This document shows, in pieces, positions 5,007 to 24,468 of a stretch of 64,000 nucleotides of DNA (its first letter is position 1; each line of letters opens with the position of its first letter). Source of the DNA: Escherichia coli O127:H6 str. E2348/69 (GTDB taxonomy: Bacteria > Pseudomonadota > Gammaproteobacteria > Enterobacterales > Enterobacteriaceae). A model generated the notes under the pieces. It was given only the letters and a program-made list of their open reading frames with translations, did no database searches and was not told the origin of the DNA. The stretch lies in the NCBI RefSeq assembly GCF_000026545.1, contig NC_011601.1; one strand, given 5' to 3'. Made by a program: the position numbers and the translations under genes.

Positions 5007-5073
5007 TGTAAAGACAAACCCGGCAGAGACGTGGTTTTGCTGGAGCACTATCAGTAAGCTAGTGGTTTCAAGG

Positions 5074-5090
5074 GTACGTCAATGACGTAC
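5074..5090. promoter_or_regulatory. Perfect palindrome GTACGTCA-A-TGACGTAC, candidate HigA-type operator
   Basis: It has 8-bp perfect arms around one central nucleotide and lies 38 bp upstream of the toxin ATG. Type II TA operons are typically autoregulated at such palindromes. Confidence 0.45.
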
Positions 5091-5127
5091 AAAAAGGATT
5101 GTTACTCTAAGCCAATGGCGTATAATT

Positions 5128-6219: not shown

Positions 6220-6240
6220 TCTGGAAAACGTCTCGCAAAA
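6220..6240 (+). promoter_or_regulatory. Conserved box, copy 2 (TCTGGAAAACGTCTCGCAAAA)
   Basis: This is the same box as at 4987 and 6668. It lies about 95 bp upstream of the yiiE ATG. Homology with copy 3 extends upstream about 25 bp (AACTGCAAC...). Confidence 0.4.
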
Positions 6241-6334
6241 ACAAAACAATATGAAAAAATCCGCTTTCGTTAATTAACTTTCCGGCGTAATTTTCGCACA
6301 TACATTAATGAGTAATATATGTAAGGTGGTGGTA

Positions 6335-6553
6335 ATGGCGATGAATACGGTTTTTCTTCATTTATCAGAAGAGGCAATTAAACGGCTGAACAAGCTTCGG
6401 GGATGGCGTAAGGTTTCGCGCTCTGCAATTTTACGCGAAGCGGTAGAGCAATATCTGGAGCGGCAGCAATTTCCGGTGCGTAAGGCAAAAGGCGGCAGGC
6501 AAAGGGACGAGGCAGTTGGTGTTGAAGAACTATGTAAGCAGCATAAGGAATGA
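6335..6553 (+). CDS. yiiE: CopG/ribbon-helix-helix family putative transcriptional regulator YiiE
   Basis: The 72-aa form starts MAMNTVFLHLSEEAIKRL, with an AAGGTGG Shine-Dalgarno 6 nt upstream. It is RHH-like (beta-strand then helices). Position and length match recalled K-12 yiiE. Confidence 0.85.
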   Translation: MAMNTVFLHLSEEAIKRLNKLRGWRKVSRSAILREAVEQYLERQQFPVRKAKGGRQRDEAVGVEELCKQHKE

Positions 6554-6667
6554 CAAAAAGATTTTTTCATTCTTGAATATAAAAACAAAAAACCAGATGA
6601 CCTTATTCTGGTATTAATACAAGGTTGTTTTACTTGAACTTATAATAACTGCAACTGTTACATCATA

Positions 6668-6688
6668 TCTGGAAAACGCCTCGCGAAA
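6668..6688 (+). promoter_or_regulatory. Conserved box, copy 3 (TCTGGAAAACGCCTCGCGAAA)
   Basis: This is the third copy of the box. It lies downstream of yiiE and faces the 3' end of convergent fdhE, with no plus-strand ORF after it. Confidence 0.35.
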
Positions 6689-6776
6689 TACGAGAGATTT
6701 TGCGGGAATAGCAGGTGTCGTCACACCCTATGAGCTGTAATCCGGGCGACCAGCGCCACCCGGAAAACGTCAGAGA

Positions 6777-7706: not shown

Positions 7707-8338
7707 TCAGCTTTCTTTTCCGTTGTCTTGCGGACCTCACGGTACCAGCGCGGGTGATGTTTCTTTGCCCAGGCGCTGGTCACCCATCCTTCCACCATGG
7801 CGGTAATCGTGCCTTTCACCCAAAGGGCGGCGTAGATATGCACCATGATAACCACAATTAACGCCACTGCGGCAAATGAATGCAGCATTAACGCGAATCG
7901 GATCACCGGGATTGAGAAAGCAGGCGCAAAATAAGGACGCCAGATAATCACGCCGCTCACCAGCAGCAGAACCAGGAAAATAATCGCCGCCCAGAAAACG
8001 CATTTCTGACCGAAGTTATAACGCCCGGTGTCACCTACTTCCTCGTTGACGACGATCTTACGAATATTCTTCGCCCAAAAGATATCATCCCGATTGATTA
8101 GGTTGTGATGCCAGTAACGGAAAAACATGATGATGAACGAGGCAAACATAACCACGCCGACAAACGGGTGCAGAATGCGCGCCAGCTGCGGTGTGCCCAT
8201 GATTTGCATCAACCAGTTGAAGGACGGGAACAAAAAGCCCAGCCCGCTCACCGCCGCCAGGATGAAGCAGAAGGCGGTGATCCAGTGGTTGATACGTTCC
8301 GGCGCGGTGTAGCGCACGATGGTGTCACGTCGTTTCAT
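7703..8338 (-). CDS. fdoI: Formate dehydrogenase-O, cytochrome b556 gamma subunit
   Basis: The 211-aa protein has four TM segments. It matches K-12 FdoI and its boundaries overlap fdoH and fdhE. Confidence 0.95.
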
Positions 8339-9237
8339 TTGCGCTCCTCGTCTTTCTCTTCGTGCAGATTATTCTCTTCCTCATCCGCACGGTTCGGACC
8401 GACACCCACGTAGTGGAAGATACTGGCTGCGAAGGTAGCCGCAAAGCCAACAGCTGCGAGCGGTTTCCAGATGCCTTTCCAGAATTTCACGGTTTCGCTG
8501 ATTTCCGGGTTCTCCGGCAAGCCATGATACAGATTTGGCTTGTCAGCATGGTGCAGCACGTACATAACATGTGTACCACCGACGCCTGCCGGGTCGTACA
8601 AACCCGCATTGTCGTAACCACGGGTTTTCAGCTCCGCCACGCGCTCGCTCGCCAGCGTTTTCATCGACTCTTTCGTACCGAAGTGAATCGCGCCCGTTGG
8701 GCAGGTCTTCACGCAGGCCGGTTCTTGCCCAACCACCACGCGGTCAACGCACAGCGTACATTTGTAGACGCGGTTGTCTTCCGGGTTGAGGCGCGGAATG
8801 TCGAACGGACAGCCCGCAATGCAATAACCGCAGCCGATGCACTGCTCGGACTGGAAGTCGACGATACCGTTGGAATACTGAATAATTGCCCCTTCCGCCG
8901 GGCACGCTTTCAGGCAGCCTGGATCGGAACAGTGCATACAGCCGTCTTTGCGGATCAGCCATTCCAGTTTGTCGTTCTGCTCCACTTCCGAGAATCGCAT
9001 CACCGTCCACGATTTGGCACTTAAATCATTGGGGTTGTCGTACACCCCAATGTTATTGCCGACGGTATCGCGAATGTCGTTCCACTCTGAACACGCCACC
9101 TGACAGGCTTTACAGCCGATACAGGTGGTAACGTCGATGAGTTTCGCCACTTCTTCCTGGAAGTCCCGCGCCTGAGGCGCGGGGGTCAGACCGTTAGTCG
9201 CGGAACGACGAATGATATCTTGCGATTGATAAGCCAT
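8335..9237 (-). CDS. fdoH: Formate dehydrogenase-O, Fe-S beta subunit
   Basis: The 300-aa protein has multiple CxxCxxCxxxCP ferredoxin motifs and a C-terminal TM anchor. It matches K-12 FdoH. Confidence 0.96.
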
Positions 9238-9249
9238 ATGTCGTCTCCG

Positions 9250-12200
9250 TTACACCTTTTCCACATTCACAAGGAAGGACTTAAACTCCGGCGTCTGCGT
9301 GTTCGCATCACCGACGAATGGCGTCAACGTATTGGCAATAAAGCCTTTTTTCGCAACACCTTCATAGCCCCAGTGAATCGGAATACCGATGGTATCGATA
9401 TCTTTGCCGTTTGCTTTCAGCGTGCGAATACGTTTGGTCACTACCGCTTTGGCTTTGATATAGCCACGGTTGGAGGAGACTTTCACAGTATCGCCCTGGG
9501 CAATGCCAAGTTTATTCGCCAGCGACTCCCCGATTTCCACAAACTGCTCTGGTTGCAAAATCGCATTCAACAGCGCGTGTTTGGTCCAGTAGTGGAAGTG
9601 CTCGGTCAGACGATAGGTGGTTCCGACATACGGGAACTTATCGGCTTTACCCAATGCTTCGGCGTCGTCTTTAAAGATACGCGCAGCCGGGTTCGAGATA
9701 ACGTTTGGATGCAGCGGGTTAGTTCCCAGCGGCGTTTCAAACGGCTCGTAGTGTTCCGGGAACGGACCTTCCGCCATCTTATCGAGGGCAAACAGACGTC
9801 CCATGCCTTCCTGCTGCATGATAAACGGCCCTACGCCGCTGCCCGGAGGCGCTGCGCTGTAGTCCGGAATATCCCAGCCGGTCCACTTAGTGCCGTCCCA
9901 TTTCAGCAACTGACGCTTCGGATCCCATGGGTTACCCTGCGGATCTGCGGAGGCGCGGTTATACAGAATGCGGCGGTTTAGCGGCCATGCCCATGCCCAG
10001 CCCAGCGTGTTACCGAGGCCAGACGGATCGGCGTTATCACGACGCGCCATCTGGTTGCCTTCCGGCGTCCAGCTACCGGCGAAAATCCAGCAGCCACAGG
10101 AGGTTGTACCGTCATCGCGCAGTTGGGCGAACGAGCTAAGTTGTTGGCCTTTCTTGACGATAACCGCACCGGTTGCCGGGTCGGTAATATCGGCCAGCGC
10201 TTTGCCGTTGCTCTCCATTGCCACTTCTTCTGAAGATGGCTCATGCGGAATGGCGTAGTTCCAGGTCATGTTCAGCACCTGGTCCGGGTTCGCGCCACCC
10301 TGTTCGGCATACATCTTGCGCAAGCGCAGGAAGATACCGGAGAGGATCTCGCCATCAGTCAGCGCAATCCCCGGGGCGTCCGCACCTTTCCAGTGCCACT
10401 GTAACCAGCGACCTGAGTTAACGATAGAACCGTTCTCTTCCGCGAAGCAGGTCGATGGTAGACGGAACACTTCGGTCTGGATCTTCGACGAGTCAACTTC
10501 GTTCAGCTCACCGTGGTTCTGCCAGAAGTTAGAGGTTTCAGTGTTCAGCGGGTCGATAGTCACGAGGAATTTCAGCTTCGACAGACAGCCGATCACTTTG
10601 TTTTTGTTCGGGAATGAGGCAACAGGGTTAAAGCCCTGGCAGATATAGCCATTGACCTTGCCTTCTTTCATCATCTCGAAGTATTGCAGGACGTCGTAGC
10701 CTTTATCCCACTTCGGCAACCAGTCAAAGCCCCAGCTATTTTCCGCCGTCGCTTTATCACCAAAGAAGGCCTTCATCATAGAGACGAAGAATTTCGGGTA
10801 GTTGCCCCAGTAGTTTACCTGGCCTTCCAGCAGCGGTTTTGGCGTGTTGGCGGTAAGGTAGGTTTGCAGATCGGTCTGCTTCTCGCTTGGCAGCGTCATG
10901 TAACCTGGCAGGCTCTGCGACAGCAGCCCCAGGTCGGTCAGCCCCTGAATATTGGAGTGACCGCGCAGGGCGTTAACGCCGCCGCCAGCCATCCCCATAT
11001 TGCCGAGCAGCAACTGGATCATCGCCATCGTACGGATGTTCTGCGCACCGATGGAGTGTTGCGTCCAGCCGAGCGCGTAAAGGAACGAGGCAGTTTTATC
11101 GTGAGCACTGGTTTCGGCGATGTATTCGCAGACTTTCAGGAATGCGTCTTTTGGCGTACCACAGATGTTTTCAACCACATCTGGCGTGTAGCGGGAAACG
11201 TGCTGTTTCAGCAAGTTCCACACGCAACGTGGATGTTGCAGGGTAGTATCGCGTTTGGCGAAGCCGTTTTCGTCCAGTTCGTAAGTCCAGGTGGACTTAT
11301 CGTACTTGCGTTTTTCCGCGTCGTAGCCGGTGAACAGGCCATCTTCAAAGCCGTAATCCTCACGCACGATCAGGCTAGCGTTGGTATAGGCTTCGGTGTA
11401 TTCGCGGTTGAATTTTTCATTGTTCAGCAGGTACAGCAATACGCCTGACAGGAAAGCAATGTCAGTACCGGAACGGATAGGGGCATAGTAGTCAGCCACC
11501 GCCGCTGTACGTGTAAAGCGAGGATCGATCACAATCAGCTTCGCGCCGTTGTGAATTTTGGCTTCCATCGCCCAGCGGAACCCGACCGGGTGAGCTTCAG
11601 CGGCGTTACCGCCCATCACCACGACGAGGTTGGCATTCTTGATGTCGACCCAGTGGTTGGTCATCGCACCGCGACCAAATGTTGGAGCAAGACTTGCTAC
11701 CGTTGGTCCGTGTCAGACACGCGCCTGGTTGTCGACCGCGAGCATACCCAGCGCGCGGGAGAATTTTTGCGTTAAATAGCCGGTTTCGTTACTCGACGCG
11801 GAAGCACACAGCATCCCGGTGGAGAGCCAGCGGTTAACAGTCACGCCTTCGGCGTTTTGCGCAATGTAGTTCGCATCGCGGTCTTCTTTCATCAGTTTGG
11901 CGATGCGATCAAACGCCTCTTCCCAACTGATTTGCTGCCATTTATCAGAACCTGGCGCACGGTATTCCGGAAACTTCAGGCGGCTTTCGGAGTGGATGAA
12001 ATCCACCAGGCCAGCGCCTTTCGGACAAAGTGCTCCGCGGTTGACCGGGTGATCCGGGTCACCTTCGATATGGAAGATAGATGCTTTGGCGTTTTTTGCT
12101 CCGTCACCGAGGCTGTACATCAACAGCCCACAGCCTACGGAACAATAGGTGCAGGTATTACGGGTTTCGCGGGTGCGCAGCAGTTTATACTGCCGGGTTT

Positions 12201-12300
12201 CCGCGAGTGCTACGCTGGGTGCAAAACCCAGTGCCGCTGCCGTGGTGCCTGCCATACCGCCAGCGCAGATCTTAAAGAACTGCCTTCTGCTGACCTGCAT
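9250..12300 (-). CDS. fdoG: Formate dehydrogenase-O catalytic alpha subunit (selenoprotein; in-frame TGA = Sec196)
   Basis: Track ORFs 11713-12300 and 9250-11664 are in the same frame. Translation reads ...DNQARV-TGA-HGPTVASLAPTFGRGAMTNHW. A twin-arginine signal (SRRQFFK) is present. The total of 1016 codons matches K-12 FdoG. Confidence 0.95.
11672..11715 (-). other. Selenocysteine codon (TGA at 11713-11715) plus SECIS hairpin
   Basis: The minus-strand RNA is UGA CAC GGACCAACGGUAGCAAGUCUUGCUCCAACAUUUGGUC. GACCAA pairs with UUGGUC and AGCAA with UUGCU around a GUC apical loop. The hairpin lies immediately 3' of the UGA, as in the E. coli fdhF/fdnG SECIS. Confidence 0.8.
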
Positions 12301-12493
12301 GGATTGCTCCTTGTTTCGACATTGTCACGTCCCATTTACATTCGCTTGCTGCGTGTGCAGGGAGTGGGAGTTATTTTTCTTTGCGGAAGGGGCCGCAAAG
12401 GTCCAGAATTGGCTCAATTTCCCTCCATCCAGGAAGGGTTTGTAACAGAATACCATAATGTTGGTGTGTGTGTTCTTATCTGGTTAATAGAAA

Positions 12494-13330
12494 GTGAAAA
12501 AAACACAGCAAAAAGAAATCGAGAATGTGACAAATATCACAGGTGTTCGTCAAATTGAGTTATGGCGGCGTGATGATTTACAACACCCACGGTTAGATGA
12601 GGTGGCGGAAGAAGTTCCCGTTGCGCTGGTCTACAACGGCATTTCGCATGTGGTGATGATGGCGTCGCCCAAAGACCTTGAGTACTTTGCGCTCGGTTTT
12701 TCGCTTTCCGAAGGAATTATCGAAAGCCCGCGCGATATCTTCGGCATGGATGTCGTTCCTTCCTGTAATGGCCTGGAAGTACAAATTGAGCTTTCCAGCC
12801 GCCGCTTTATGGGGTTGAAGGAACGCCGCCGGGCGCTGGCGGGACGTACGGGCTGTGGCGTATGCGGTGTAGAACAGCTTAACGATATCGGTAAACCGGT
12901 GCAGCCGCTGCCGTTCACCCAGACGTTTGATCTCAACAAACTGGATGATGCATTACGTCATCTCAATGATTTCCAGCCAGTGGGGCAACTGACTGGTTGT
13001 ACTCACGCCGCTGCATGGATGTTGCCATCTGGCGAACTGGTCGGCGGGCATGAAGACGTGGGTCGCCATGTGGCGCTGGACAAACTGTTAGGCCGCCGGT
13101 CACAAGAAGGGGAAAGCTGGCAGCAAGGTGCGGTGCTGGTTTCCAGCCGTGCCAGTTATGAAATGGTGCAAAAGTCGGCGATGTGCGGCGTAGAGATTTT
13201 GTTTGCGGTGTCTGCCGCGACCACACTTGCTGTAGAAGTGGCTGAGCGCTGTAATCTGACGCTGGTGGGCTTTTGTAAACCGGGTCGGGCAACGGTTTAT
13301 ACCCATCCGCAGCGTTTGGTTCATAATTAA
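12494..13330 (+). CDS. fdhD: Sulfurtransferase FdhD (formate dehydrogenase maturation)
   Basis: The protein is 277-278 aa with a GTG start and the conserved GRTGCGVCG motif. It matches K-12 FdhD and is divergent from fdoG. Confidence 0.95.
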
Positions 13331-13336
13331 AGAAAT

Positions 13337-13372
13337 ACCGCAATTCTGATTCTGGATTGCGGTTTTATTTTT
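13337..13372 (+). terminator. Rho-independent terminator of fdhD
   Basis: The stem pairs ACCGCAAT (13337-13344) with ATTGCGGT (13356-13363). TTTTATTTTT follows. Confidence 0.7.
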
Positions 13373-13640
13373 CTATTAAATAATCCTCAATATATTATTC
13401 AGCATTTAAATAATAATTTCACCACAATAAATTATCTCGTTAATTCCGGTTTATATCGATATACTCCGGTCGCATTAATCCTTTAAGAATTAATCATTAT
13501 TTATATAAGACATTTTGTTTTAATCATCGCGTCAATAAATAAATGTTTCTGATGAGTGAATGCAAATAACAAACCTTGCACCGGTTGTAAAAACAGCAAT
13601 GTATTTTCAATAGTGGGTGATGGATTATGAGTATTGAAAA

Positions 13641-15476
13641 ATGAGTACATTACAGTTACCTGGCAGTTCATATTCTACTGAAGTTAATTTAAACGGCTTA
13701 ATTGAGGTGCTCAGTAAGCACCTTTACTCTACCCCCGTGGTCGCCGTGCGCGAGCTGGTGCAGAACGGACACGATGCGATCGTGCGCCGCAGGATTGAGC
13801 AGCCCGATGCGCCAAAGGATAACCAAATTCGTGTGGTGGCAGACGTGGCGAAGTCCACCATCACCATTACCGATACCGGTGCGGGTTTGACAGAAAGCGA
13901 AATTCACGGCTTCCTGGCAACAGTGGGCGTGGGTTATACCCGAATGTTGCGCCAGCAGGATGACAACACCGGTTTAATTGGTATGTTCGGCCTTGGTTTC
14001 TTGTCAGCATTTGTACTTGCAAAAGAGGTCACGGTGTTGACCACATCCTGGCAAACGCCGGATCAGAGCTGGAAATACCACTCTACCGACGGGCAAAAAT
14101 ATACCGTTACGCCGCATCAGTCCTCGGAAACGGGAACGCAGGTGATTCTGACGCTCAAAGAAGAGTACAGCCATCTGGCGAGTAACAATTTGCTGAACCG
14201 CGTTCTTTCCCGCTACTGTGTATTGCTGCACGAACCGGTCTATGTCGGCGATGCCAGCGAGCCGGTAAATAAACTTCAACCACCGTGGCGTGAAGTTGCC
14301 CCCGAAGGCGTAACCATACACCGCGCGCTGGTACAGCGTAAAAATCTCGCCTTTGCCGCCCAGTTTGAATCCTCCTTCGAACCGATTTGCACCATTCCGG
14401 TGGTGCCAGCGGGAATGAGCGACGCGGTTGGGATTTTATGGATTCAGGATGGCGCGACCTACGGCACCAGCGATAACCGCAACCTGTCGTTGTTTTTGCG
14501 CGGCATGTTACTGGATGATGAAGCGCGTGAGTTGTTACCGCCCTGGGCCGGATTTATTGGCGGCGTGATTGAGTCATCGAAACTGACGCCGACGGCGAGC
14601 AGGGAAGATCTCCAGCGGGATGCAACCTGGGTTGCGGTACAGGAGGCGTTAAAAGAGGCGCTGATTTCTGGTTTGTCCGATCTCGCACAAAATCAGCCAG
14701 AAATCTGGCGGCGGGTATTAATGCGCCACAACGAAGCGTTGCTGGGTGCGGCCTTGTGTGATGACCGTCTGTTTGATTTGCTCAAAGATCGCTTGCAGGT
14801 GCCAACGTCAAAAGGGGCGCTGCTGGCGAAGGATTTACGCGTTAATAACAGCATTCATATTCTGTTAAGCCGCGACGGCGGTTTTGAAGAGATGTTGTTC
14901 CATATTCTGCAACGGCCTGTAGCCCGTGGCGATCGCTATGCGGTGGTGCCATTTTTACGCCGTTGGGCGCTGTTATATCACTGCCGGATTGTCGAAGTCG
15001 GTACGCAAACGGGTAATGAGCAGTTGTTCAGCCTGGCAGAATTACCCAAAGAGCAGGTGGCTTATCTGGAAGAGCATCTCTGCGACGGCGAGCAATTAAT
15101 TATCTCACGCTTCGAACCCGCCGTTTTACCGTTAGTGGTTACACCAGACCGCGAAGCAGAATTAAAACAAATTCTCGAACAGGATGACGCAGATAAACGC
15201 ATCAGTACCGCAGCGTTAATGCTGGCGCGGCAATTTACCTCGCAAATCCAAAAATCTAAAACTTCAAGTCTGTATATCAACCTTAATAACCCCTGTGTCA
15301 TGCAACTGGTGACGGCCTTACAACACCATCAACAGCCAGCGGCAGCATTACGGTTATTAAAATCGCTGAAAGTGATTTTGTGCTCCAGCGGTAATAAAGA
15401 ACAGCAGTGGGATTTACACCAGGCACTGGAAGATTTTACTCAGGTTATTCCTGTCTTAATTAATCAAGGAAAATAA
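13641..15476 (+). CDS. Hsp90/HtpG-family paralog (GHKL ATPase), full length
   Basis: The 611-aa protein aligns by eye to E. coli HtpG along its whole length. Matches are STE14 (catalytic Glu), RELVQNGHDA (N-box, against RELISNASDA), DTGAGLT (G1, against DNGVGMT), GMFGLGFLSAF (G2, against GQFGVGFYSAF) and LTPTASREDLQ (middle-domain catalytic Arg loop, against LPLNVSREILQ). It is too divergent to be htpG itself, which maps elsewhere. Confidence 0.85.
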   Translation: MSTLQLPGSSYSTEVNLNGLIEVLSKHLYSTPVVAVRELVQNGHDAIVRRRIEQPDAPKDNQIRVVADVAKSTITITDTGAGLTESEIHGFLATVGVGYTRMLRQQDDNTGLIGMFGLGFLSAFVLAKEVTVLTTSWQTPDQSWKYHSTDGQKYTVTPHQSSETGTQVILTLKEEYSHLASNNLLNRVLSRYCVLLHEPVYVGDASEPVNKLQPPWREVAPEGVTIHRALVQRKNLAFAAQFESSFEPICTIPVVPAGMSDAVGILWIQDGATYGTSDNRNLSLFLRGMLLDDEARELLPPWAGFIGGVIESSKLTPTASREDLQRDATWVAVQEALKEALISGLSDLAQNQPEIWRRVLMRHNEALLGAALCDDRLFDLLKDRLQVPTSKGALLAKDLRVNNSIHILLSRDGGFEEMLFHILQRPVARGDRYAVVPFLRRWALLYHCRIVEVGTQTGNEQLFSLAELPKEQVAYLEEHLCDGEQLIISRFEPAVLPLVVTPDREAELKQILEQDDADKRISTAALMLARQFTSQIQKSKTSSLYINLNNPCVMQLVTALQHHQQPAAALRLLKSLKVILCSSGNKEQQWDLHQALEDFTQVIPVLINQGK

Positions 15477-15477
15477 A

Positions 15478-17784
15478 ATGGATACATGGGAGTGGTACAA
15501 CAAATATAGTCAAGAGTTGCGTGATGCCGGGCAAGAATATATTCCGCAGCTTATTGATGATTTTTCAGAAAGTGTTTTGCACCTACAAATAGAAAAATGT
15601 GATTCGCTATTGCCGGAAATGAAAGCACTGAATCAAGTCGCCAAAAATCCGTGGCTGGAAATATTTATTGGTCACTGGGAAATGCGTCATCGCCTGACTA
15701 ACTATGAAGAAGGTGAAAAGGTGCTGCCAGACGTGGTAGCGCTGTTTGAAAAAGCGCATCGGGAAGAGGCGAAAGATTGCCCGCAATCTATCTGCGTTAC
15801 CCAGGATTTATCAGCCTGCTACGAAAATATTGACGCACCAGGCTGGGCGAATGAACGCATGGCGGTGTGTGAAGAAACCATCGCGCGCATTGATCCGACC
15901 TGGAGCTGTTTTCAGTGTTTGTCCACTGAATATGCCAGCGCACTGATAGATTCCAAAAGAACAGAGGAGGCACTGGCTTATCTGGATCGGCAAATCGACG
16001 CAGTTAAAGCAGCCGGGAAAGATGATATTGATCCATTACTTTATACTCGCGCCGATATTCTGATTGAACTTCAGCGTTATGATGAAGCACGCAAATTGAT
16101 TGATGAGCTGACAGAAGCCAATGATTACTGGGGCCGCGACCGCATTAGTAATCACCTAAAAAAACTGTACATCATGGCGTTATGCGGGCAGGACGAAGAA
16201 GTCTGGGAGGAATTACCGCGTTGGTCCGATCTGACTCCGCATTCATGGGGGTCATGGCTGAAAATCATTACTGTGTTACTTCCCCGTCATCCACAAAGAA
16301 ACAACTGGCAACTGGCGCGCATCATCCAGAAAATGCTGGAGCAACGTTCACAGGCCGGGGCGCATCGAAAAGTGGTTAATCTGGCAAAACTACAAATCAC
16401 CCTGGCGCTGGAGCGTGAATCCGTCTGGGTTGCCAAAATAGCGATGAAACTGGCCCAGCGACACATGCCAAAATTACGCGCGTTACTGGGCGTCGATCGC
16501 GAGTTTCTCGAACTTAGCGAAAAAATCGCCACCAAAGAAGCAGAGTTGCTTGCTCGTCCGGTTGTAGAAGTACCTGAAAATAGCGACGAAGAAACGCAGC
16601 CAGATCCAGAAAAAGACGTCGAAATATTCCGCCGCGCTTATCTGAACACACCAGACGATGCAGAGTTACTGGGCAAACTGGTCAATGCGTTAAATGCCTG
16701 TAATGCGATTAATGAGTCAATTGAACTTCTGCAACGCTATGTTGAAAGCCACCTCCATGAAGATAATGGTCTTTGCTTCGATCTGTTGGATTTATTGCTC
16801 CACCGTGACGATCTGCAAACCATTGAGCACCTGGCGAAGCAGTATGAACAGGCGGGGCTGCTACATATGGCCTTGTGGTTCCGGGCGCGAGTGATCAACC
16901 AACAGGAAGACTGGAGTGAACTGGAGTCGATTGGACAACAGTTGCTGCAAAACGAAAAAGGGCGTGAGTGGGTTGGCGTTTATCGCATGTGCTCCTGGGC
17001 AGCACAAAAACAGGAAGCCTGGGATCGACAGCTGGATTATTTACAACAATTGCAGCAACTGATGATTAGCCGTGAAGAAGATATTCGTAATCTCCAGTGG
17101 GATATCATGGCGACCGCCAGCATCCTGCAACAATGGGATTTGGTTCGTGCTATTGCTGCTGAACTGGAAATCGAACTCACGGAAGGTGAAGGTTTTATTG
17201 ACGAAAAATGGGGGCTGCTAAACATTCGCTTCCGGGAAAATTATGAATACCGCTATTACTATGCTCAACGTATTGGGCCGGTAACCGCAAGGATCATTGA
17301 GCCAACTTACCGGACCGATTATCCGCAACATGTTGATGAGGTTGTGGTATTCGATGCAGAAATGTTGAATACCCGACCAGAGGATGAGGAAGAGCAGAAG
17401 AATTTCACTCCGCTTTATGGGTGCCTGAAAACCATTATCCCGACCGAATACGGCGAGTCCTGGTTCTGCGAAGGTGTCATGCCTGGTGAAGAAGAGTTTA
17501 ATACTTTCCGTGAGGCGCTCCGTGAACGAAACTGGTACTACTGGAGCAACAGTAATGACGACTATACGTTAACGGACAGTCATCAAGGAGAAGGCGCTGA
17601 GCCGCTGTCTGCATTCTATTTTGTTATCAGTGCGCCGCGTTCAGTTTCTAAAGGTGATATCGACAAGACCTTGCACGAATTGACCGCTGACTGGAAACAT
17701 CCGTTGTGCTGGTGGCGTCTTGCCAAAGAAGCCGGGGCGAATGAAGAGAAACATGCTGCTATTGCCGAGAGATATGGAATGTAA
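15478..17784 (+). CDS. Large helical-repeat (TPR-like) protein with Cys cluster and C-terminal domain of unknown function; partner of the Hsp90 paralog
   Basis: The 768-aa ORF starts 1 nt after the upstream stop (TAA A ATG), implying translational coupling. About 560 aa are Leu/Ala/Glu-rich helical hairpin-like segments (for example EEALAYLDRQIDAVKAAG and YDEARKLIDELTEAND). Cysteines at 101/106/114/131/144/147 include a CxxC. An acidic linker spans 361-380 and an aromatic-rich C-terminal segment spans about 575-768. I recognised no catalytic motif. Confidence 0.7.
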   Translation: MDTWEWYNKYSQELRDAGQEYIPQLIDDFSESVLHLQIEKCDSLLPEMKALNQVAKNPWLEIFIGHWEMRHRLTNYEEGEKVLPDVVALFEKAHREEAKDCPQSICVTQDLSACYENIDAPGWANERMAVCEETIARIDPTWSCFQCLSTEYASALIDSKRTEEALAYLDRQIDAVKAAGKDDIDPLLYTRADILIELQRYDEARKLIDELTEANDYWGRDRISNHLKKLYIMALCGQDEEVWEELPRWSDLTPHSWGSWLKIITVLLPRHPQRNNWQLARIIQKMLEQRSQAGAHRKVVNLAKLQITLALERESVWVAKIAMKLAQRHMPKLRALLGVDREFLELSEKIATKEAELLARPVVEVPENSDEETQPDPEKDVEIFRRAYLNTPDDAELLGKLVNALNACNAINESIELLQRYVESHLHEDNGLCFDLLDLLLHRDDLQTIEHLAKQYEQAGLLHMALWFRARVINQQEDWSELESIGQQLLQNEKGREWVGVYRMCSWAAQKQEAWDRQLDYLQQLQQLMISREEDIRNLQWDIMATASILQQWDLVRAIAAELEIELTEGEGFIDEKWGLLNIRFRENYEYRYYYAQRIGPVTARIIEPTYRTDYPQHVDEVVVFDAEMLNTRPEDEEEQKNFTPLYGCLKTIIPTEYGESWFCEGVMPGEEEFNTFREALRERNWYYWSNSNDDYTLTDSHQGEGAEPLSAFYFVISAPRSVSKGDIDKTLHELTADWKHPLCWWRLAKEAGANEEKHAAIAERYGM

Positions 17785-17881
17785 GCGGCACTAACGTTTG
17801 TCCGACTCTGGTGTAGCTGAACGGTGAAATCCCAGGTCGGACAACAAACCGTACTAACGGGGGGCCCAAAAATTGTGTCTC

Positions 17882-19630
17882 TCACCCCTGACGAAGTAAC
17901 GCCATAAACGCTTCATACCCTGTTAACCTGGCAATAGTTTCCGCCGGATGCTGACACAGGACGCTGGCAAGATAGCTGAATATTTTCAACTCGTGACGCG
18001 CATCGGCGGCGGCACAGGCGATCAACACGTGGTTAATGACTTCGTTATTCACCTCGATCGGGTGGGCGAGGGTAATAAAAAATCCACGAAAACGTCGCTC
18101 CTGCTCGCTCCAGCAATGTGGGATGGCGAGGCGATTAACAATCAGGTTTTCACCTTCGCCTTCGCGGGCGATGATGCGTTGTGCTTCATCGGTGGTAATA
18201 TGGTGTTGCGTCACTAATTGCGCACAAATTTGCCGGGTAATATGTTGCCAGCTTTCACCGCGTACATTCGAATAATGAAAACTTCCGGGGGCAGAGAAAA
18301 AACGCTCCGGTTGCTGGCGAATAAATGCCGTCGCCAGAAAATGTTTTATTTGTTCGATACCGGCAGCCGTAATGATATTTTTTACGGTGATGTAATTATT
18401 TACCGCGTCATCCAGTAAATAATGGCTGTTGTTAATGATCAATAACGGCTCAATTTCTTCGCGAATGGCAACAAGTTCGCTTAAGCTACGGGCAATAATC
18501 ACCCGACAATTTAAAACATCGCGCTCAATGGCGAGCTGATTAATAGTGGCAATCGCGTTCTGATCAGAGAGCAAAATGATCGGCTGGCGTTCGTTTTGAT
18601 GCCGTTCCAGCGCACAGGCAAAATACAAACCGATCAGATCGCTGTCGAAAAGGGGAATATCGAGTTGTTCACGCAGTAGCGTAATAAAGTGCAGACTCAT
18701 ATCAAAGGCCGCAGGCCAGGCGGCTTTCAGGTTATTCATGCTGCTTTGGCGGTGCTCACCAATCCACACCGGCGCGGCAAGGCAACGTAATAAATGCCCG
18801 GTAATATTCTCAACCAGCTGCGTATCAATAATATTCAATGACGCGATGCCCGGCACCCTTTGCAGCAACCCCTGCACATTATCGGCAGAAATTACCTGTG
18901 CTTGCTGATGCTGTTTCTCTATCAAACCTGTCAGGGTTCTTACAGCGTTATCACCAAGAAACATGCCGCTTTGTTCAACGATTTGTTTTATCTCGTCACC
19001 GGGATATTGCGGCCACTCATCGGTCAGTTGATTACGCAGGGCGTAAATAGCCAGTATCAGGCTGGAGAGATAATCACCCTGCATAAGCGGCAAGCGGTGT
19101 TGGTTGTCGCAGGCTGTGGATAAATGCTGAAGGTTGTCTCGTGTTACGCCAGCCAGAGGAATTAAAAACGGATCTTTGCGCAGCAAGTTCGCCAGCAAAA
19201 TAACGCGTTTCTCTTCTGTCTCATCAATGAAATGGCCCAAACCGGGGCGACTGGCCAGGCAGCAAGTGCGCTCATAACGTTGCTTTAATCGTGGCAGACG
19301 CTCTGCGACCCACGTTTCTGGCAAATTAAGCGCCGAGGCGAGCTGCGCACGGGGAGTAAAGGTATTCAGTAATAACAACGCCAGCAGCCGATCGTCGTTA
19401 TCGTGCTTTTGCAGCAACTGAAAAAAGCTGCGGCGCTCGAAGATTTCCAGCTGATAGCCCGCACTACCACTGGCAGAAATGCGGGCTTTGCCGTTAAGGG
19501 TAAAGTTGAGATAGTCAATATCACGCAGTATGGTCCTGCCAGAAACGCCAGTCTGTTGCGCCAGCTCACCAGGCGTGCGCGGCTGTTGCTCCAGCAGATC
19601 GACAATCTTTAACTGGCGTTCGTTTAGCAT
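17882..19630 (-). CDS. frvR: PTS-regulatory-domain transcriptional regulator FrvR
   Basis: The 582-aa protein has an N-terminal HTH (GVSGRTILRDIDYLN). It matches recalled K-12 FrvR and is syntenic with frvABX. Confidence 0.92.
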   Translation of the reverse strand: MLNERQLKIVDLLEQQPRTPGELAQQTGVSGRTILRDIDYLNFTLNGKARISASGSAGYQLEIFERRSFFQLLQKHDNDDRLLALLLLNTFTPRAQLASALNLPETWVAERLPRLKQRYERTCCLASRPGLGHFIDETEEKRVILLANLLRKDPFLIPLAGVTRDNLQHLSTACDNQHRLPLMQGDYLSSLILAIYALRNQLTDEWPQYPGDEIKQIVEQSGMFLGDNAVRTLTGLIEKQHQQAQVISADNVQGLLQRVPGIASLNIIDTQLVENITGHLLRCLAAPVWIGEHRQSSMNNLKAAWPAAFDMSLHFITLLREQLDIPLFDSDLIGLYFACALERHQNERQPIILLSDQNAIATINQLAIERDVLNCRVIIARSLSELVAIREEIEPLLIINNSHYLLDDAVNNYITVKNIITAAGIEQIKHFLATAFIRQQPERFFSAPGSFHYSNVRGESWQHITRQICAQLVTQHHITTDEAQRIIAREGEGENLIVNRLAIPHCWSEQERRFRGFFITLAHPIEVNNEVINHVLIACAAADARHELKIFSYLASVLCQHPAETIARLTGYEAFMALLRQG

Positions 19631-20706
19631 TAATCCACCTGACGGAACTGGCTAAACGCGTTGACTTTCTCCGCAGTTAAGGTCGTCAGAAAATCCCGTA
19701 TCAGCATGAGCAGAGCATCGTAATCGGCTTTTGAAATCATGCCGCTGTTAGCGTGCAGATAACGAGTTGGCAGACACAGCGCAACAACCGGACGCCCGCC
19801 GCCCATTACGTTGTAGCGCCCGCCATCCGTCGCACCGGTTTTCATGGTGGAAAATTGCAGCGGTAAATCATTCTGCGTGGCACAGCTTTTTAACGCCACC
19901 ACCAGCTTCTGGTTGGGGAAGTAGCGTTTATCAAACAGCATCAGCCCCGGCCCCTGGCCCAGTTTTAGCGGGTATTTAATGTTATCAATGCCCGGAACAT
20001 CGCCTGCGACGGCGGTATCCAGCACGATCACAACATCCGGTTTAATGTGTTCCGCCGAGGTTTGCGCCCCGCGCAGGCCAACTTCTTCTTCCACACTGCC
20101 AACGCCATACAGCGTAATTTCGGGATTATTCACCGTCTGCAATAGCTCAGCCATCATTGCGCAGCCGATGCGGTTATCCAACGCCTTGCCGACCACTTTA
20201 TCTTCGCCCCAGCAGGCAAAATTGGCTTCCGGGCTAATAAAATTACCAATTTCCACGCCGCATTTTTCCGCTTCTTCGCGGCTGTTCGCGCCAATATCAA
20301 TGAACATCTCATCAAATGACAGCGGTTGTTGCTTTTGCTTTTCGGTTAACGCATGTGGCGCGACGGAACCAATCACACCAAGGATTTTAAATCCCTTGTG
20401 TGTGCGTATGGTTACCCGGTGGTTGAGCATCGACTGATTCCACCAGCCACCAATGGTGGTGAAACGCAGAAAACCGCTCTCGTCGATGTGGGTGACCATA
20501 AAGCCGACTTCATCCATATGCCCGACAACGGCAACTTTTGGACCTTTATTCCCCTTACGGGCAACAAAGCTGCCCAGACCATCAAAGGTGATCTCATTAA
20601 TGCAAGGTTCCAGCGTGTTTATCAGAATGTCGCGAACTTCCTGTTCATCGCCGCTAACGGCGCTGGCTTCGCACAACTGTTGCAGTAACTCAATGTTCAT
20701 GGACAA
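19630..20706 (-). CDS. frvX: M42-family aminopeptidase/endoglucanase-like protein FrvX
   Basis: The track form is 358 aa. The K-12 form (356 aa, MNIELLQQL) would start at 20700. The metal-ligand region VVGHMDEVGF is present. The gene is syntenic. Confidence 0.92.
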   Translation of the reverse strand: MSMNIELLQQLCEASAVSGDEQEVRDILINTLEPCINEITFDGLGSFVARKGNKGPKVAVVGHMDEVGFMVTHIDESGFLRFTTIGGWWNQSMLNHRVTIRTHKGFKILGVIGSVAPHALTEKQKQQPLSFDEMFIDIGANSREEAEKCGVEIGNFISPEANFACWGEDKVVGKALDNRIGCAMMAELLQTVNNPEITLYGVGSVEEEVGLRGAQTSAEHIKPDVVIVLDTAVAGDVPGIDNIKYPLKLGQGPGLMLFDKRYFPNQKLVVALKSCATQNDLPLQFSTMKTGATDGGRYNVMGGGRPVVALCLPTRYLHANSGMISKADYDALLMLIRDFLTTLTAEKVNAFSQFRQVD

Positions 20707-22141
20707 GCTCCTGTTGTGCGGCTTTCGCTTTGCGGCGTAACCACAATCCTTTCAGGACGATAATGAATGAAATGTTCAGCGCCAGACCAATCGCCAGCAC
20801 CAGATAAAACGAACCTACCGGCGACATCAGGCCGATCAGCGGGTCAAAGATACCTAAACCCGGTGCCAGACGTTTGATTCCGAAAGCGATCACCAGCACG
20901 CCGGTAATGCCGCCCGCCAGCGTATTGGCGGTAATCATCGGCAACGGAGCTGCCAGAGCGTAAGGAATAGCTGGTTCGGTTGCGACTGTGGCACCGACCA
21001 CAATGGCACTACTGGCAGCCTCTTTTTCCTGTTGAGTAAACAGTTTGGGCGCAATGAACGTCGCAAGACCCGACGCGACGGGCGGCATCAGCGCGACAAC
21101 GCCGACGATGGCGTACCAGTCATAAATGTGTTTTTCCAGCAGCGAGAAGCAGAAGAACCAGGCAGTTTTGTTGATGGGGCCGCCCATATCGAACGCCAGC
21201 ATCGCACCAACCAGAAACGCCGCCGCAAACTTCATTGACGGAGGAATAGTATTCAGGAAGTGCAGCAGCCCGCCCATGAGGTCGGACATCACCGGCCCGA
21301 TAACGTAGTAAGTGAGCACGCCAAAAACCAGCAGAGTAACGAACGGGATCAGCATTGAACCGAGCAGCGGTTGTAATGCTTTGCCAAGGCGCACTTTGCG
21401 GAACCAGAAGACGAAGTAGCCAATTGCCAGCCCCAGCACCACCGCACCGAGGAAGCCCGCGCCAGACTGGGTGCCGAGCAACGCTTTGTCGTTCGCCAGA
21501 TAGCAAACCAGAAACGCCGGAGCGAAAGCGGGTTTATCGGCAATCGACGAGGCAATATAAGCGCCCATGATGGGGATCATAAAGGTGAAGCCGAGATAAC
21601 CGATGGATTCAACCACCCAGGTAAACGACGGCGCGCCTTTCGACATATCGGTATACGGCAAACCGAACTGCACCAGCATGTTGGCAAGCGCCACCAGAAT
21701 ACCGCCGCCGATGACAAACGGCAGTGCCGCAGAGACGCCCGCCATCAGGTGGCTCATCACGCTGCCGCTTTGTACTTCCTGTTTGCCGAGCTTTACGCCG
21801 CTATCTGCGGCAAAAAGCTGCGAGTTTGTCGGTAATTCACTGAAAATCTGGTCGATATTTTTCAACGCCTGGGAGATGGCAATCTCATAAACCTTCTTCC
21901 CGGCAAACCGCGCGCGATCGTCGCCGCTCAGACCACGCCCGGTGGCGAGAATCACGTAATCGGCAGCGGCAATCTCTTCGCTGGATAAGCGGTTTTCAAC
22001 GCCGCTTGATCCTTGAGTTTCCACTTTAATGGTATAGCCGAGAGAACGGGCTTTCTGTTCCAGGGCTTCCGCCACCATGTAGGTGTGAGCGATCCCGGCA
22101 GGGCAGTTGGTGATCGCGACAATACGTAAGGATGACTCCAT
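20690..22141 (-). CDS. frvB: PTS fructose-like enzyme IIBC component
   Basis: The 483-aa protein has an N-terminal IIB domain (ITNCPAGIAHTYM) and a polytopic IIC domain. It matches K-12 FrvB. Confidence 0.94.
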   Translation of the reverse strand: MESSLRIVAITNCPAGIAHTYMVAEALEQKARSLGYTIKVETQGSSGVENRLSSEEIAAADYVILATGRGLSGDDRARFAGKKVYEIAISQALKNIDQIFSELPTNSQLFAADSGVKLGKQEVQSGSVMSHLMAGVSAALPFVIGGGILVALANMLVQFGLPYTDMSKGAPSFTWVVESIGYLGFTFMIPIMGAYIASSIADKPAFAPAFLVCYLANDKALLGTQSGAGFLGAVVLGLAIGYFVFWFRKVRLGKALQPLLGSMLIPFVTLLVFGVLTYYVIGPVMSDLMGGLLHFLNTIPPSMKFAAAFLVGAMLAFDMGGPINKTAWFFCFSLLEKHIYDWYAIVGVVALMPPVASGLATFIAPKLFTQQEKEAASSAIVVGATVATEPAIPYALAAPLPMITANTLAGGITGVLVIAFGIKRLAPGLGIFDPLIGLMSPVGSFYLVLAIGLALNISFIIVLKGLWLRRKAKAAQQELVHEH

Positions 22142-22151
22142 CGCTACGTCC

Positions 22152-22598
22152 TTATGAGCTGAGGGTTTGATTTAACAAAGCAAGCACCTGGTCGGCGTCG
22201 CCCTGTCGCAGTTGGTTGATAAAATCCTGGTGGATAATTTTGCGACATAGTGTGCCGATGAGTTTGACCTGATCCTCTTCGCCGCTTTGCGGTACGCCGA
22301 GGCAGATCCAGCAATTGACGTCTTCGCCATCGCTGGCTTGCCAGTCAATGGCTTGTGTTTTACGTGCGAACAGCACGAACGGTTGTTTAACGCAGGCGCT
22401 TTTACCGTGCGGTACGGCGATGCCGGAACCAAAACCGGTGGAGTGCATTTTTTCGCGCAGTAGTAACGTTTGCAGGAATTGGTGTGAGTCGGTGATAAAA
22501 CCGTTTTGTAACGCTATTGTCGCCAGTTGCTTCAGAATGGAATAAGCGCCGTTGCCCTGAATATTCAGGTCAATACAGCTTGCAGTAAGTGCTGCCAT
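22152..22598 (-). CDS. frvA: PTS fructose-like enzyme IIA component
   Basis: The 148-aa protein has a PTS EIIA type-2 His region (GIAVPHGK). It matches K-12 FrvA. Confidence 0.94.
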   Translation of the reverse strand: MAALTASCIDLNIQGNGAYSILKQLATIALQNGFITDSHQFLQTLLLREKMHSTGFGSGIAVPHGKSACVKQPFVLFARKTQAIDWQASDGEDVNCWICLGVPQSGEEDQVKLIGTLCRKIIHQDFINQLRQGDADQVLALLNQTLSS

Positions 22599-23073
22599 TA
22601 TCAGACTCCATGAAAAATATTTCAGTTAATTGTAATCGCGGGGCGGGTTTGTGATGAGCGCGGATATGTCACGAAGTCGCGACAATATAAAGCAGAGTGA
22701 AAGGTAAAATTTGCGGTACCAGACACATATCAGTAGATAAAATAAACTTTGTGAATAAAGTATTATTATTTAATGATTTTGTGAATGTTTAAATGCCCAG
22801 GATATCTTGCCATAACGTTATTTATATTTGTGGCTTATGAGTCAGCGTGAATTATATCTAATATTTTTTACGATATTTAGTTAAAAACGGCACTATTGTT
22901 ATATTCCTCACATTCCAGGAAATCAGCGGATTTACTCATATTATGCAGCGGGATACTATCCATCGGCCTGCTGAAGTTGGATTAAAAATTCGAAAGTGCA
23001 CACCTTATATTTCTCTATATACGTATTCCTTTTGGAAAGCGTAGGGTCTCCTTTATTTCAGGGAACGTAAATA

Positions 23074-24468
23074 ATGAAAAAATCGACATTATCTTTAGCC
23101 ATCGGTTTATTATTGGCATGTAGTACCGGTATGGCAAAAACACAGCATTTAACGCTGGAACAACGCATGGCATTGCTGGAAGAACGCCTGGAAGCGGCAG
23201 AAATGCGGGCAGCAAAAGCAGAGGGGCAGGTTAAACAGCTTCAGACACAACAAGCCGCCGAGATCCGCGAAATTAAGATCGCACAGGGCAACACGCCGGT
23301 AAACGGTCAATCAACGACGGAGTCAGAGAAGAAAAACGCCACCCCGCCTAATCTCCTGCTTTCAGGGTATGGCGATTTAAAAATCTACGGTGACGTAGAA
23401 TTTAATATGGATGCGGAAAGTAATCATGGCCTGCTGGCAATGACCAACGCTGATGTGAATAGCGATCCCACTAATGAACAGTGGAATCTCAATGGTCGTA
23501 TTCTGTTAGGTTTTGATGGTATGCGAAAACTGGATAATGGCTATTTCGCTGGGTTCTCCGTACAACCGCTGGGGGATATGCACGGTTCAGTAAATATCGA
23601 TGATGCGGTTTTCTTCTTTGGCAAAGAAAACGACTGGAAGGTCAAAGTAGGCCGTTTTGAAGCCTACGATATGTTCCCGCTGAATCAGGATACCTTTGTT
23701 GAACATTCCGGTAATACTGCGAACGATCTTTATGACGATGGCAGCGGTTATATCTATATGATGAAAGAGGGCCGCGGGCGTTCTAACGCTGGCGGTAATT
23801 TCCTCGTCAGCAAACAACTCGATAACTGGTATTTTGAATTAAACACGTTACTTGAAGACGGAACATCTTTATATAATGACGGTAATTATCATGGACGCGA
23901 TATGGAGCAGCAGAAAAATGTTGCTTATCTGCGTCCGGTAATTGCCTGGTCGCCGACGGAAGAATTCACCGTTTCCGCAGCGATGGAAGCGAACGTAGTA
24001 AATAATGCTTATGGTTATACCGATAGCAAGGGTAATTTTGTCGATCAGTCCGATCGTACCGGCTATGGTATGAGCATGACCTGGAATGGCCTGAAAACGG
24101 ATCCGGAAAATGGCGTCGTGGTTAATCTTAATACCGCCTATTTAGATGCTAATAATGAGAAAGATTTCACTGCCGGGATTAACGCGCTGTGGAAACGTTT
24201 CGAGCTGGGTTATATCTACGCACATAATAAGATTGATGAATTTAGTGGCGTGGTTTGTGATAACGATTGCTGGATTGATGATGAAGGAACATACAACATT
24301 CACACCATTCATGCGTCTTATCAGTTCGCTAATGTGATGGATATGGAGAACTTTAATATTTACCTCGGCACGTATTACTCCATTCTGGATAGCGACGGCG
24401 ATAAGATACACGGCGACGATAGTGATGACCGTTACGGCGCACGCGTTCGCTTTAAATACTTCTTCTGA
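23074..24468 (+). CDS. Outer-membrane glycoporin, ScrY/BglH/RafY-like (N-terminal coiled coil plus beta-barrel)
   Basis: The protein is 464 aa with a signal peptide (MKKSTLSLAIGLLLACSTGMA). The coiled-coil segment LTLEQRMALLEERLEAAEMRAAKAEGQVKQLQ resembles the BglH/ScrY N-terminus. Alternating beta-strand patterns are present and the C-terminus ends ...RFKYFF with an aromatic residue. The gene is absent from the K-12 frvA-rhaM interval. Confidence 0.75.
   Translation: MKKSTLSLAIGLLLACSTGMAKTQHLTLEQRMALLEERLEAAEMRAAKAEGQVKQLQTQQAAEIREIKIAQGNTPVNGQSTTESEKKNATPPNLLLSGYGDLKIYGDVEFNMDAESNHGLLAMTNADVNSDPTNEQWNLNGRILLGFDGMRKLDNGYFAGFSVQPLGDMHGSVNIDDAVFFFGKENDWKVKVGRFEAYDMFPLNQDTFVEHSGNTANDLYDDGSGYIYMMKEGRGRSNAGGNFLVSKQLDNWYFELNTLLEDGTSLYNDGNYHGRDMEQQKNVAYLRPVIAWSPTEEFTVSAAMEANVVNNAYGYTDSKGNFVDQSDRTGYGMSMTWNGLKTDPENGVVVNLNTAYLDANNEKDFTAGINALWKRFELGYIYAHNKIDEFSGVVCDNDCWIDDEGTYNIHTIHASYQFANVMDMENFNIYLGTYYSILDSDGDKIHGDDSDDRYGARVRFKYFF

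Follow-up and report, generated by a model that had tools for sequence, protein, structure and literature searches.

An Hsp90 paralog and its Cys4/TPR partner form a conserved bacterial gene pair, in Escherichia coli beside fdhD, and possibly a dedicated chaperone machine

What does a bacterial Hsp90 paralog do with a large tetratricopeptide repeat (TPR) protein encoded one base behind it? The question is raised by a 64,000-nucleotide stretch of the chromosome of enteropathogenic Escherichia coli (EPEC) O127:H6 str. E2348/69 (NC_011601.1), hereafter the window. Between fdhD and frvR it carries, on the plus strand, a gene for an Hsp90-family paralog of 611 aa (13641-15476) and a gene for a partner protein of 768 aa (15478-17784); the stop codon of the first is followed by one spacer base and then by the ATG of the second. 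Both open reading frames (ORFs) lie where a first-pass annotation, made from the DNA sequence, had placed them, and the two genes are translationally coupled and operonic. RefSeq names their products only "ATP-binding protein" and "tetratricopeptide repeat protein". The question has wider interest in that co-chaperones of Hsp90, according to the field, "are found only in eukaryotes" (PMC9478669), and bacterial Hsp90 serves as a "co-chaperone-free" model (PMC9478669, and PMC3708813 in the passages searched). We give an even chance to the reading that the pair is a dedicated two-component chaperone machine, consisting of the Hsp90 paralog and a partner that acts as its adaptor or co-chaperone. 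An Hsp90 paralog tied to one TPR/Cys4 partner would be a direct and testable counter-example to the restriction of co-chaperones to eukaryotes, and one that spans the Gammaproteobacteria, Betaproteobacteria and Myxococcota. The pair itself is uncharacterised.

The reading depends in the first place on whether the two genes belong together. The first-pass annotation had treated them as a unit that ought to recur in the same order, and this is borne out in both directions. All 93 partner loci, of which 80 came from scanning species-representative genomes and 13 had been retrieved before that scan, have the Hsp90-like gene immediately before the partner and in the same orientation. In a reverse scan for the Hsp90-like clade in metagenomes, counting only loci with enough downstream sequence, the partner follows in the same order at 78 of 78. 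Intergenic spacers are short in other lineages, or the genes overlap, and pairing holds down to 27-31% partner identity, as seen in Myxococcota and metagenomes. The pair is a real, conserved and reciprocally obligate two-gene unit. Of its two members the Hsp90-like protein evolves the more slowly, with identities of 51-64% compared to 27-42% for the partner.

The family is large. An exhaustive profile search with the partner matched approximately 600 clusters at 50% identity (E<=1e-30). The best 120 matches in a homologue search with the Hsp90-like protein were near-identical Escherichia proteins only and added no breadth. Partner homologs are full-length and uniform, at about 750-790 aa, and nearly all of the 150 best profile hits are full-length at 716-801 aa. 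They occur in Enterobacterales, Pseudomonas, Xanthomonas, Stenotrophomonas, Acinetobacter, Psychrobacter, Rhodocyclales and Myxococcota; in P. aeruginosa the partner clusters are large, which suggests that the pair is widely present within that species. The pair is found in tractable and clinically relevant hosts, among them EPEC E2348/69, P. aeruginosa (probably as PA1068/PA1069), S. maltophilia and the Xanthomonas plant pathogens, and because these organisms are tractable, genetics and biochemistry are feasible now. The literature searched contained nothing specific on the pair as a unit or on a bacterial Hsp90 co-chaperone, and the name "Hsp90xo" appeared there in a genome announcement only; together with the want of any specific family for the partner, this agrees with the first-pass view that the pair is undescribed.

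Three entries encountered during these scans deserve separate mention. On metagenome contig L178 approximately 2.7 kb (4015-6739) separate the Hsp90-like gene from the partner, where the usual distance is below 150 nt, which suggests an insertion between the two. Contig L090, labelled Nocardiopsis yanglingensis strain A18 Scaffold2, carries the pair with Stenotrophomonas-like identities and exact Stenotrophomonas flanking gene clusters; contamination or mislabelling of the assembly is the probable cause. The 90%-identity cluster of P0021, a 764-aa partner from P. aeruginosa, also holds 'ATP-binding protein' entries of 611-636 aa that are the Hsp90-like protein; the mixture may reflect read-through or fused deposited sequences, or a clustering artefact.

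Is the first protein a functional Hsp90? Its N-domain (residues ~14-200) is a GHKL ATPase, its middle domain supplies the catalytic arginine, and its C-terminal region is divergent. Pfam HATPase_c_3 matches at 38.5 bits, above its cut-off, and Pfam HSP90 at 32.9 bits against a cut-off of 24.4 (residues 274-353). The best NCBIfam model, NF010683 'HSP90 family protein' (the PRK14083 equivalog), aligns over the full length (residues 13-571) at 287.7 bits against a cut-off of 455, while the canonical HtpG model NF003555 reaches 198.4 bits and misses its threshold of 371. Since the former score, too, falls below the cut-off (288 against 455), the protein belongs to a clade related to NF010683 but separate from it. 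The nearest solved structures are TRAP1 and HtpG (E ~1e-30 to 1e-27), which align with residues ~10-360; residues ~385-611 align to the NF010683 profile only, and not to the C-terminal dimerisation domains of solved Hsp90s.

The catalytic residues were located by alignment with TRAP1. The Bergerat fold contributes the catalytic Glu and the Mg-binding Asn from codons E38-L-V-Q-N42 (13752-13766, plus strand; E38 and N42 in RELVQN), followed by D78 in DTGAGLT (DxGxG) and the glycine motif GLIGMFGLGF (GxxGxG). R321, in SREDLQ (14601-14603, plus strand), pairs with LSRELLQ of TRAP1; it is the equivalent of yeast R380, within the motif SRExLQ, and matches the middle-domain arginine of Hsp90 that contacts the gamma-phosphate of ATP. 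All of these (E38, N42, D78, the GxxGxG motif and R321) are invariant in a family alignment of 17 sequences, and the ATPase looks fully competent. The first-pass description of the gene as encoding a complete, second Hsp90-family GHKL ATPase is thus upheld by the Pfam scores, the full-length NF010683 alignment and the intact catalytic residues. Its residue numbering requires correction at two places: N42 was right, but the glutamate given as E14 is E38 and the arginine given as R322 is R321.

The partner is the less familiar of the two. No specific Pfam, NCBIfam or PADLOC family matches it, and Pfam returns a weak TPR signal in which TPR_19 is above cut-off. A predicted structure built on 41 homologs (mean pLDDT 92) is very confident, and its repeats are helical hairpins. 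An N-terminal helical-repeat array (residues 1-360) is followed by an acidic disordered linker (361-376), a canonical TPR array (377-562; 16606-17163, plus strand), recognised by profile match and helix pattern, and a C-terminal alpha/beta domain (579-768; 17212-17781, plus strand). By profile comparison with the family, residues 378-533 match TPR proteins of consensus or engineered design as well as the TPR region of OGT. Fold searches found no enzyme-like fold in any domain, the alpha/beta domain included.

The strongest conservation lies in residues 59-151, as judged from 249 members of the family, whose median identity is 31%. W59, H66, C101-P-Q103, C106, D110, D119, C144 and C147 are 99-100% conserved. 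The core of this region, C101-P-Q-x2-C106 ... D110 ... D119 ... C144-x2-C147 (15778-15918, plus strand), is a predicted Cys4 site, with H66 as a further candidate ligand, and the Cys-x4-Cys ... Cys-x2-Cys arrangement suggests a metal site that would hold Zn or Fe-S. The partner is a TPR and helical-repeat protein, as first described, and not only that: the Cys4 region and the separate alpha/beta domain had been passed over.

How might such a pair work? In the mechanism we propose, the partner would be co-translated with the Hsp90 paralog and serve as its adaptor or co-chaperone. The N-terminal Cys4(+His) module and the helical and TPR arrays would bind the Hsp90-like dimer, a specific client, or both, the C-terminal alpha/beta domain would offer a second protein-binding surface, and ATP hydrolysis by the Hsp90-like protein (through E38, N42, D78 and R321) would drive remodelling or assembly of the client. 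What links the two proteins is genetic; that they bind one another, that the partner is an adaptor and not itself the client, that the Cys4 motif binds a metal, and that the pair has a client of its own are all steps that we infer. A more specific version, which we advance tentatively and would not call probable, makes the partner the first bacterial Hsp90 co-chaperone or adaptor, a Cys4 metal-binding TPR scaffold that docks independently of MEEVD and delivers a specific client; the Cys4 site, through its redox or metal state, may gate the activity of this scaffold. Were this true, Hsp90-adaptor partnerships would have arisen independently of the eukaryotes, or before them.

Several observations weigh against the proposal. 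The last 30-50 residues of the Hsp90-like protein vary in length and sequence across the family alignment and contain no acidic terminal or MEEVD-like motif. Because the tail lacks both conservation and such a motif, the eukaryotic mode of TPR docking does not apply, and docking of MEEVD in a TPR clamp was discarded as a candidate. The constellation of residues conserved at 95% or more in the partner (H66, C101, Q103, C106, D110, D119, C144, C147 and E151) could be an active site, and if it is, the partner is more than an adaptor. The one exception found to the pairing, a distant actinobacterial homolog in Nonomuraea (26% identity), lies between dapF and a short-chain dehydrogenase gene, and no Hsp90-like gene is encoded within 6 kb of it. 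E. coli can dispense with the pair, which 95% of its genomes lack. Finally, the equivalence of the P. aeruginosa pair to PA1068/PA1069 rests on gene context and one sentence in the literature (PMC4053335), and not on a sequence match.

Comparison with known systems shows which parts of the proposal have precedent. Presumably E. coli has its canonical htpG elsewhere on the chromosome, and HtpG (NF003555) shares with the Hsp90-like protein its family, domain order, Bergerat motifs and middle-domain arginine. The Hsp90-like protein differs in its score on the HtpG model (198 bits against a cut-off of 371), in its divergent C-terminal third, and in being always paired with the partner, whereas HtpG is stated to be co-chaperone-free (PMC9478669, and PMC3708813 in the searched passages). 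The two may also differ in regulation, to judge from P. aeruginosa, where heat shock lowers the probable partner ortholog PA1069 approximately 4-fold and raises htpG (PMC4957987); indirectly, then, the Hsp90 paralog does not appear to be heat-induced. Closer relatives may be sought among the divergent bacterial Hsp90 paralogs, which comprise HtpG groups B and C and the family of NF010683, the best curated model for the Hsp90-like protein. Groups B and C are those of Chen et al. 2006 and, reportedly, of Stechmann and Cavalier-Smith 2004. Ancient, short Hsp90 paralogs have been recognised in Gammaproteobacteria by phylogeny (Chen et al. 2006, PMC1525184, in the passages searched). Groups B and C are likewise defined by phylogeny only and were explicitly left out of a functional study (Press et al. 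2013, PMC3708813, searched passages). Neither source reports, in those passages, a partner gene for either group. For these long-ignored paralogs the pair offers a functional handle.

The eukaryotic Hsp90-TPR systems (Hop/Sti1, PP5, Tah1, Sgt1-Rar1, UNC-45 and Tom70) likewise join an Hsp90 ATPase to a multi-domain, non-enzymatic TPR adaptor, although binding in the bacterial pair is presumed. In UNC-45 and Sgt1-Rar1 the TPR is combined with other helical or zinc-binding client modules. In contrast to these systems, the Hsp90-like protein has no conserved MEEVD-type tail, the partner is related to the named co-chaperones, in sequence and in fold, by generic TPR only, and an operon-encoded 1:1 gene pair stands in place of a shared adaptor pool. 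A conceptual analogy from another chaperone family is HscA/HscB, an Hsp70 paralog with its J-protein in Fe-S cluster assembly, where a second copy of a chaperone sits beside its own specialised co-factor, stands outside the heat-shock response and serves a narrow range of clients. HscA/HscB differs in that no client pathway genes are linked to the pair, whose neighbours differ in every lineage.

The adaptor reading has its most serious rival in the possibility that the partner is the client: a Cys4 metalloprotein with a function of its own as sensor, enzyme or scaffold, for which the Hsp90 paralog would be a private foldase or metallation chaperone, as in dedicated chaperone-client operons. 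Obligate reciprocal pairing fits adaptor and client alike and does not discriminate between them. That the strongest conservation falls on Cys, His, Asp, Glu and Gln residues at 59-151, and not on TPR grooves, would suit a site for catalysis or for a cofactor; the partner is a large protein of several domains, chaperone-first order with tight coupling would suit co-translational capture, and the distant homolog with no adjacent Hsp90-like gene suggests that a stand-alone role is possible. Against this, no domain has an enzyme-like fold, and AlphaFold gives very confident regular repeats that do not seem hard to fold. We consider the client reading unlikely, while taking it seriously.

A further rival takes part of its support from P. 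aeruginosa, where the locus reads LysR, the pair, then braG...braC...flgB. The pair there is most likely PA1068/PA1069; the names in the P. aeruginosa clusters are just "hypothetical protein" and give no direct confirmation. PA1069 has been described as a hypothetical protein, "operonic" with an Hsp90 gene (PMC4053335), is detected as protein (PMC4053335; PMC5541441), and was still an "Uncharacterized protein" in July 2026 (PMC13411936). It is induced by Ca2+ and/or biofilm growth (PMC4053335), is activated by AmrZ (PMC3946381), and has been co-immunoprecipitated with the biofilm stress protein BatR (PMC13411936). The operonic link, the detection as protein, the fall on heat shock and the activation by AmrZ count towards the chaperone-machine reading. 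The responses to Ca2+, biofilm growth and AmrZ, together with the co-immunoprecipitation, would also suit a regulatory ATPase switch, in which the GHKL cycle times conformational change, much as in MutL, MORC or histidine-kinase-like proteins, the partner senses redox state or metal, and the output is, for example, a biofilm or stress response. The Cys4 motif does resemble redox- or zinc-switch sites, for which Hsp33 and the ZAS-type proteins provide the comparison. Three points make the switch improbable: the whole Hsp90-like protein, middle-domain motifs included, aligns with Hsp90 proper and not with other GHKL families; neither protein has a DNA-binding, kinase, phosphatase or cyclase output domain; and the expression and co-immunoprecipitation data come from screens, none of them specific to the pair.

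The first-pass annotation had proposed a third rival, an anti-phage or conflict system in a variable hotspot. On this reading the repeat protein would be the sensor of some phage component, and the GHKL ATPase would pass the signal on or itself bring about growth arrest. An ATPase beside a repeat-scaffold protein is a layout that invites this view, and in E. coli the distribution does so too. The cassette is patchy, occurring in 254 of 5,426 complete genomes (4.7%), with every match at 80% coverage or more, single-copy and chromosomal; other E. coli haplotypes, of which there are several, are 93-95% identical to the E2348/69 cassette. Most E. coli genomes have yiiG between fdhD and frvR, and the pair was first taken to occupy the yiiG slot. 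That yiiG is usual there is correct, but a general replacement is not. The order fdhD-pair-yiiG is found in strain 1380, E. ruysiae, E. whittamii, two other Escherichia sp. lineages and Superficieibacter, and probably also in Salmonella Infantis SARB27, where the pair lies in the same fdoG-fdhD...rha region. No more than 6 of 5,426 E. coli genomes have the yiiG-less junction of E2348/69, where 97 bp of unrelated sequence replace yiiG. Simple replacement of yiiG by the cassette was discarded, as yiiG is retained beside the pair in strain 1380 and in other species.

Comparison of the junctions in E2348/69, strain 1380 and the cassette-free strain SFE8 provides a further feature that could be counted for defence, namely an imperfect direct repeat of ~22 bp bracketing the cassette in yiiG-retaining genomes. 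The left copy, CCGCAGCGTTTGGTTCATAATTAA (13307-13330, plus strand), is the 3' end of fdhD, supplied from the cassette side and ending with the gene at 13330. The right copy, CCGCAAAGGTTGAACTATTAATT, present in strain 1380 and other Escherichia species and lost in E2348/69, is a degenerate fdhD 3' end; cassette-free strains have the functional CCGCAGCGTTTGAGCAATTAATT, and the cassette side supplies the replacement fdhD end. The repeats look like the trace of an insertion made long ago at the fdhD end, of which no mobility genes survive. On this evidence the cassette would have entered Escherichia long ago at the fdhD 3' end and have been chromosomal and mostly vertically inherited since, and most E. 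coli would since have lost it, or have inherited a cassette-free allele.

Rates of substitution fit such a history. Between Escherichia species, dS is 0.15-0.63 for the pair genes and 0.23-0.58 for fdhD, and the similarity of these values fits co-divergence of the pair with the chromosome. Within E. coli the picture is more mosaic, and could again be claimed for defence. Between E2348/69 and strain 1380, dS is 0.015 for fdhD, 0.15 for the Hsp90-like gene and 0.43 for the partner, and because it climbs in this way between these two strains there has been recombination within the locus. On its yiiG-frvR side strain 1380 has just 85% identity to ordinary E. coli. Recombination brought divergent alleles into the locus, possibly from a cryptic clade. 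Values of dN/dS are 0.03-0.05 for the Hsp90-like gene, 0.05-0.09 for the partner and 0.03-0.06 for fdhD; the pair is under purifying selection, like fdhD, and the partner, which would be the sensor, gives no sign of gene-wide diversifying selection.

Beyond E. coli, the distribution reverses the defence-like impression, a negative result that matters for the discovery of defence systems, since an impression of this kind does not suffice for calling one. The variable-hotspot framing does not survive: the pair occupies one chromosomal region across enterobacterial genera, and in Xanthomonas and Stenotrophomonas it is syntenic across dozens of species, with a radA-like gene (domains Zn_ribbon_LapB, AAA_25 and ChlI) in the upstream neighbourhood. 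Nor is there enrichment near defence genes, as housekeeping genes make up most of the 125 ORFs that flank the pair in 23 independent contexts; these ORFs include CstA, Mqo, IMPDH, ExoVII, MraW, RNase E/G and ABC transporters, and the number of PADLOC matches among them is approximately the number of ABC-transporter and dynamin-like neighbours. For the pair itself, PADLOC has no family that matches the partner and its matches for the ATPase, which are to TmtA and to a type II restriction enzyme, are weak (22.7 bits at most) and reflect the GHKL domain only. The GHKL defence proteins (TmtA, MzaB and the BbrUII/HgiDII type) have an N-terminal GHKL domain in common with the Hsp90-like protein, but the matches cover ~100-190 N-terminal residues and score well under the cut-offs, at 38 bits against 550 (BbrUII) and 10.6 against 850 (MzaB), no other component of those systems is present, and the partner matches no defence family. 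Domain and fold searches found no nuclease, protease, NADase, pore or other effector fold in either protein, no viral contig encodes a relative, there are no real plasmid or phage copies, and the literature searched contained nothing on an Hsp90-like defence system. Taken with the synteny, the absence from mobile elements and the low dN/dS, these results make the defence reading very improbable, and it was discarded as the leading interpretation.

The database matches behind the question of plasmid and phage copies are instructive in themselves. In PLSDB three "plasmid" records matched: an 847-kb record from P. aeruginosa (NZ_CP131792.1), an 11.85-Mb record from Nonomuraea (NZ_LT559118.1) and a 29-kb Xanthomonas record. 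In INPHARED one "phage" record matched, AFYI01000005.1, which is a 156-kb Salmonella whole-genome-shotgun contig. The 847-kb, 11.85-Mb and AFYI01000005.1 records are mislabelled entries that would yield false 'mobile element' matches.

Conflict-type neighbours were seen in Cronobacter only. There, the pair is immediately preceded by two toxin genes of the hok/gef type (PF01848; contigs L004-L006, 4894-5596), and a dynamin-like, LeoA-like GTPase pair lies a few kb downstream; neither is recurrent in other lineages.

The AT-rich leader is the last feature that had been counted towards defence, and it is as first described: 277 bp (13364-13640, plus strand) precede the pair at a GC content of 0.30-0.35, compared to ~0.50-0.55 in the flanks. 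Its sequence is nearly identical among Escherichia species, and it contains a palindrome and mini-ORFs abutting the start codon. Upstream of it, after fdhD, an intrinsic-terminator-like hairpin with a T-run (13337-13363, plus strand; a 10-bp stem with 5 G-C pairs, tail TTTATTTTTC) appears to mark the upstream boundary of the cassette transcription unit. Because the hairpin occupies 13337-13363, position 13337, at which the first-pass annotation began the cassette, belongs to the fdhD terminator. The near-perfect palindrome CCGGTTTATATCGATATACTCCGG (13446-13469), conserved across Escherichia species, is a candidate operator for some regulator. A simple scan found no sigma-70 consensus promoter on the plus strand of the leader, and an RNA element was discarded, as Rfam gave zero matches to the leader even at E<=1.

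At the downstream end of the leader, a five-codon upstream ORF can be read on the plus strand (13627-13644; ATG AGT ATT GAA AAA TGA, encoding MSIEK), preceded by GGTGA, a plausible Shine-Dalgarno sequence. This short ORF, which is kept in Escherichia and Salmonella leaders, ends in a stop codon that shares bases with the ATG at the start of the Hsp90-like gene; termination-reinitiation coupling into the Hsp90-like gene is possible. The corresponding upstream ATG of Superficieibacter shares its reading frame with the main ORF, which leaves the true start codon, or the coupling mechanism, uncertain. An extra element of ~120 bp (…GAATCCCCAGGAGCTTACATGAGTAAGTGACTGGGGTGAGCGA…), presumably resembling an ERIC/IRU enterobacterial repeat, is present in the leaders of Escherichia sp. 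E1V33 (L015:7850-8166) and Salmonella Infantis (L097:4850-5165), at the same relative position in both lineages; since it sits in the leaders of two lineages, the leader tolerates insertions.

At the other end of the cassette, the lineage-specific 97-bp junction (17785-17881, plus strand) extends from the partner stop to the frvR stop and contains an inverted repeat, GTCCGAC...GTCGGAC. The first-pass observation that no integrase, transposase or tRNA flanks the pair holds: no tRNA was found in 8000-24000 of the window, and the annotation of the 6 kb to each side includes neither an integrase nor a transposase. In RefSeq the neighbours are only fdoGHI-fdhD upstream and frvRXBA downstream. Among these, the gene for the alpha subunit of formate dehydrogenase-O (9250-12300, minus strand) appears as two ORFs (9250-11664 and 11713-12300), where RefSeq has one coding sequence of 3,051 nt; the split reflects the known in-frame UGA selenocysteine codon of fdoG. 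RefSeq gives its product the name 'fdnG / formate dehydrogenase-N subunit alpha', although the gene sits in the fdo operon.

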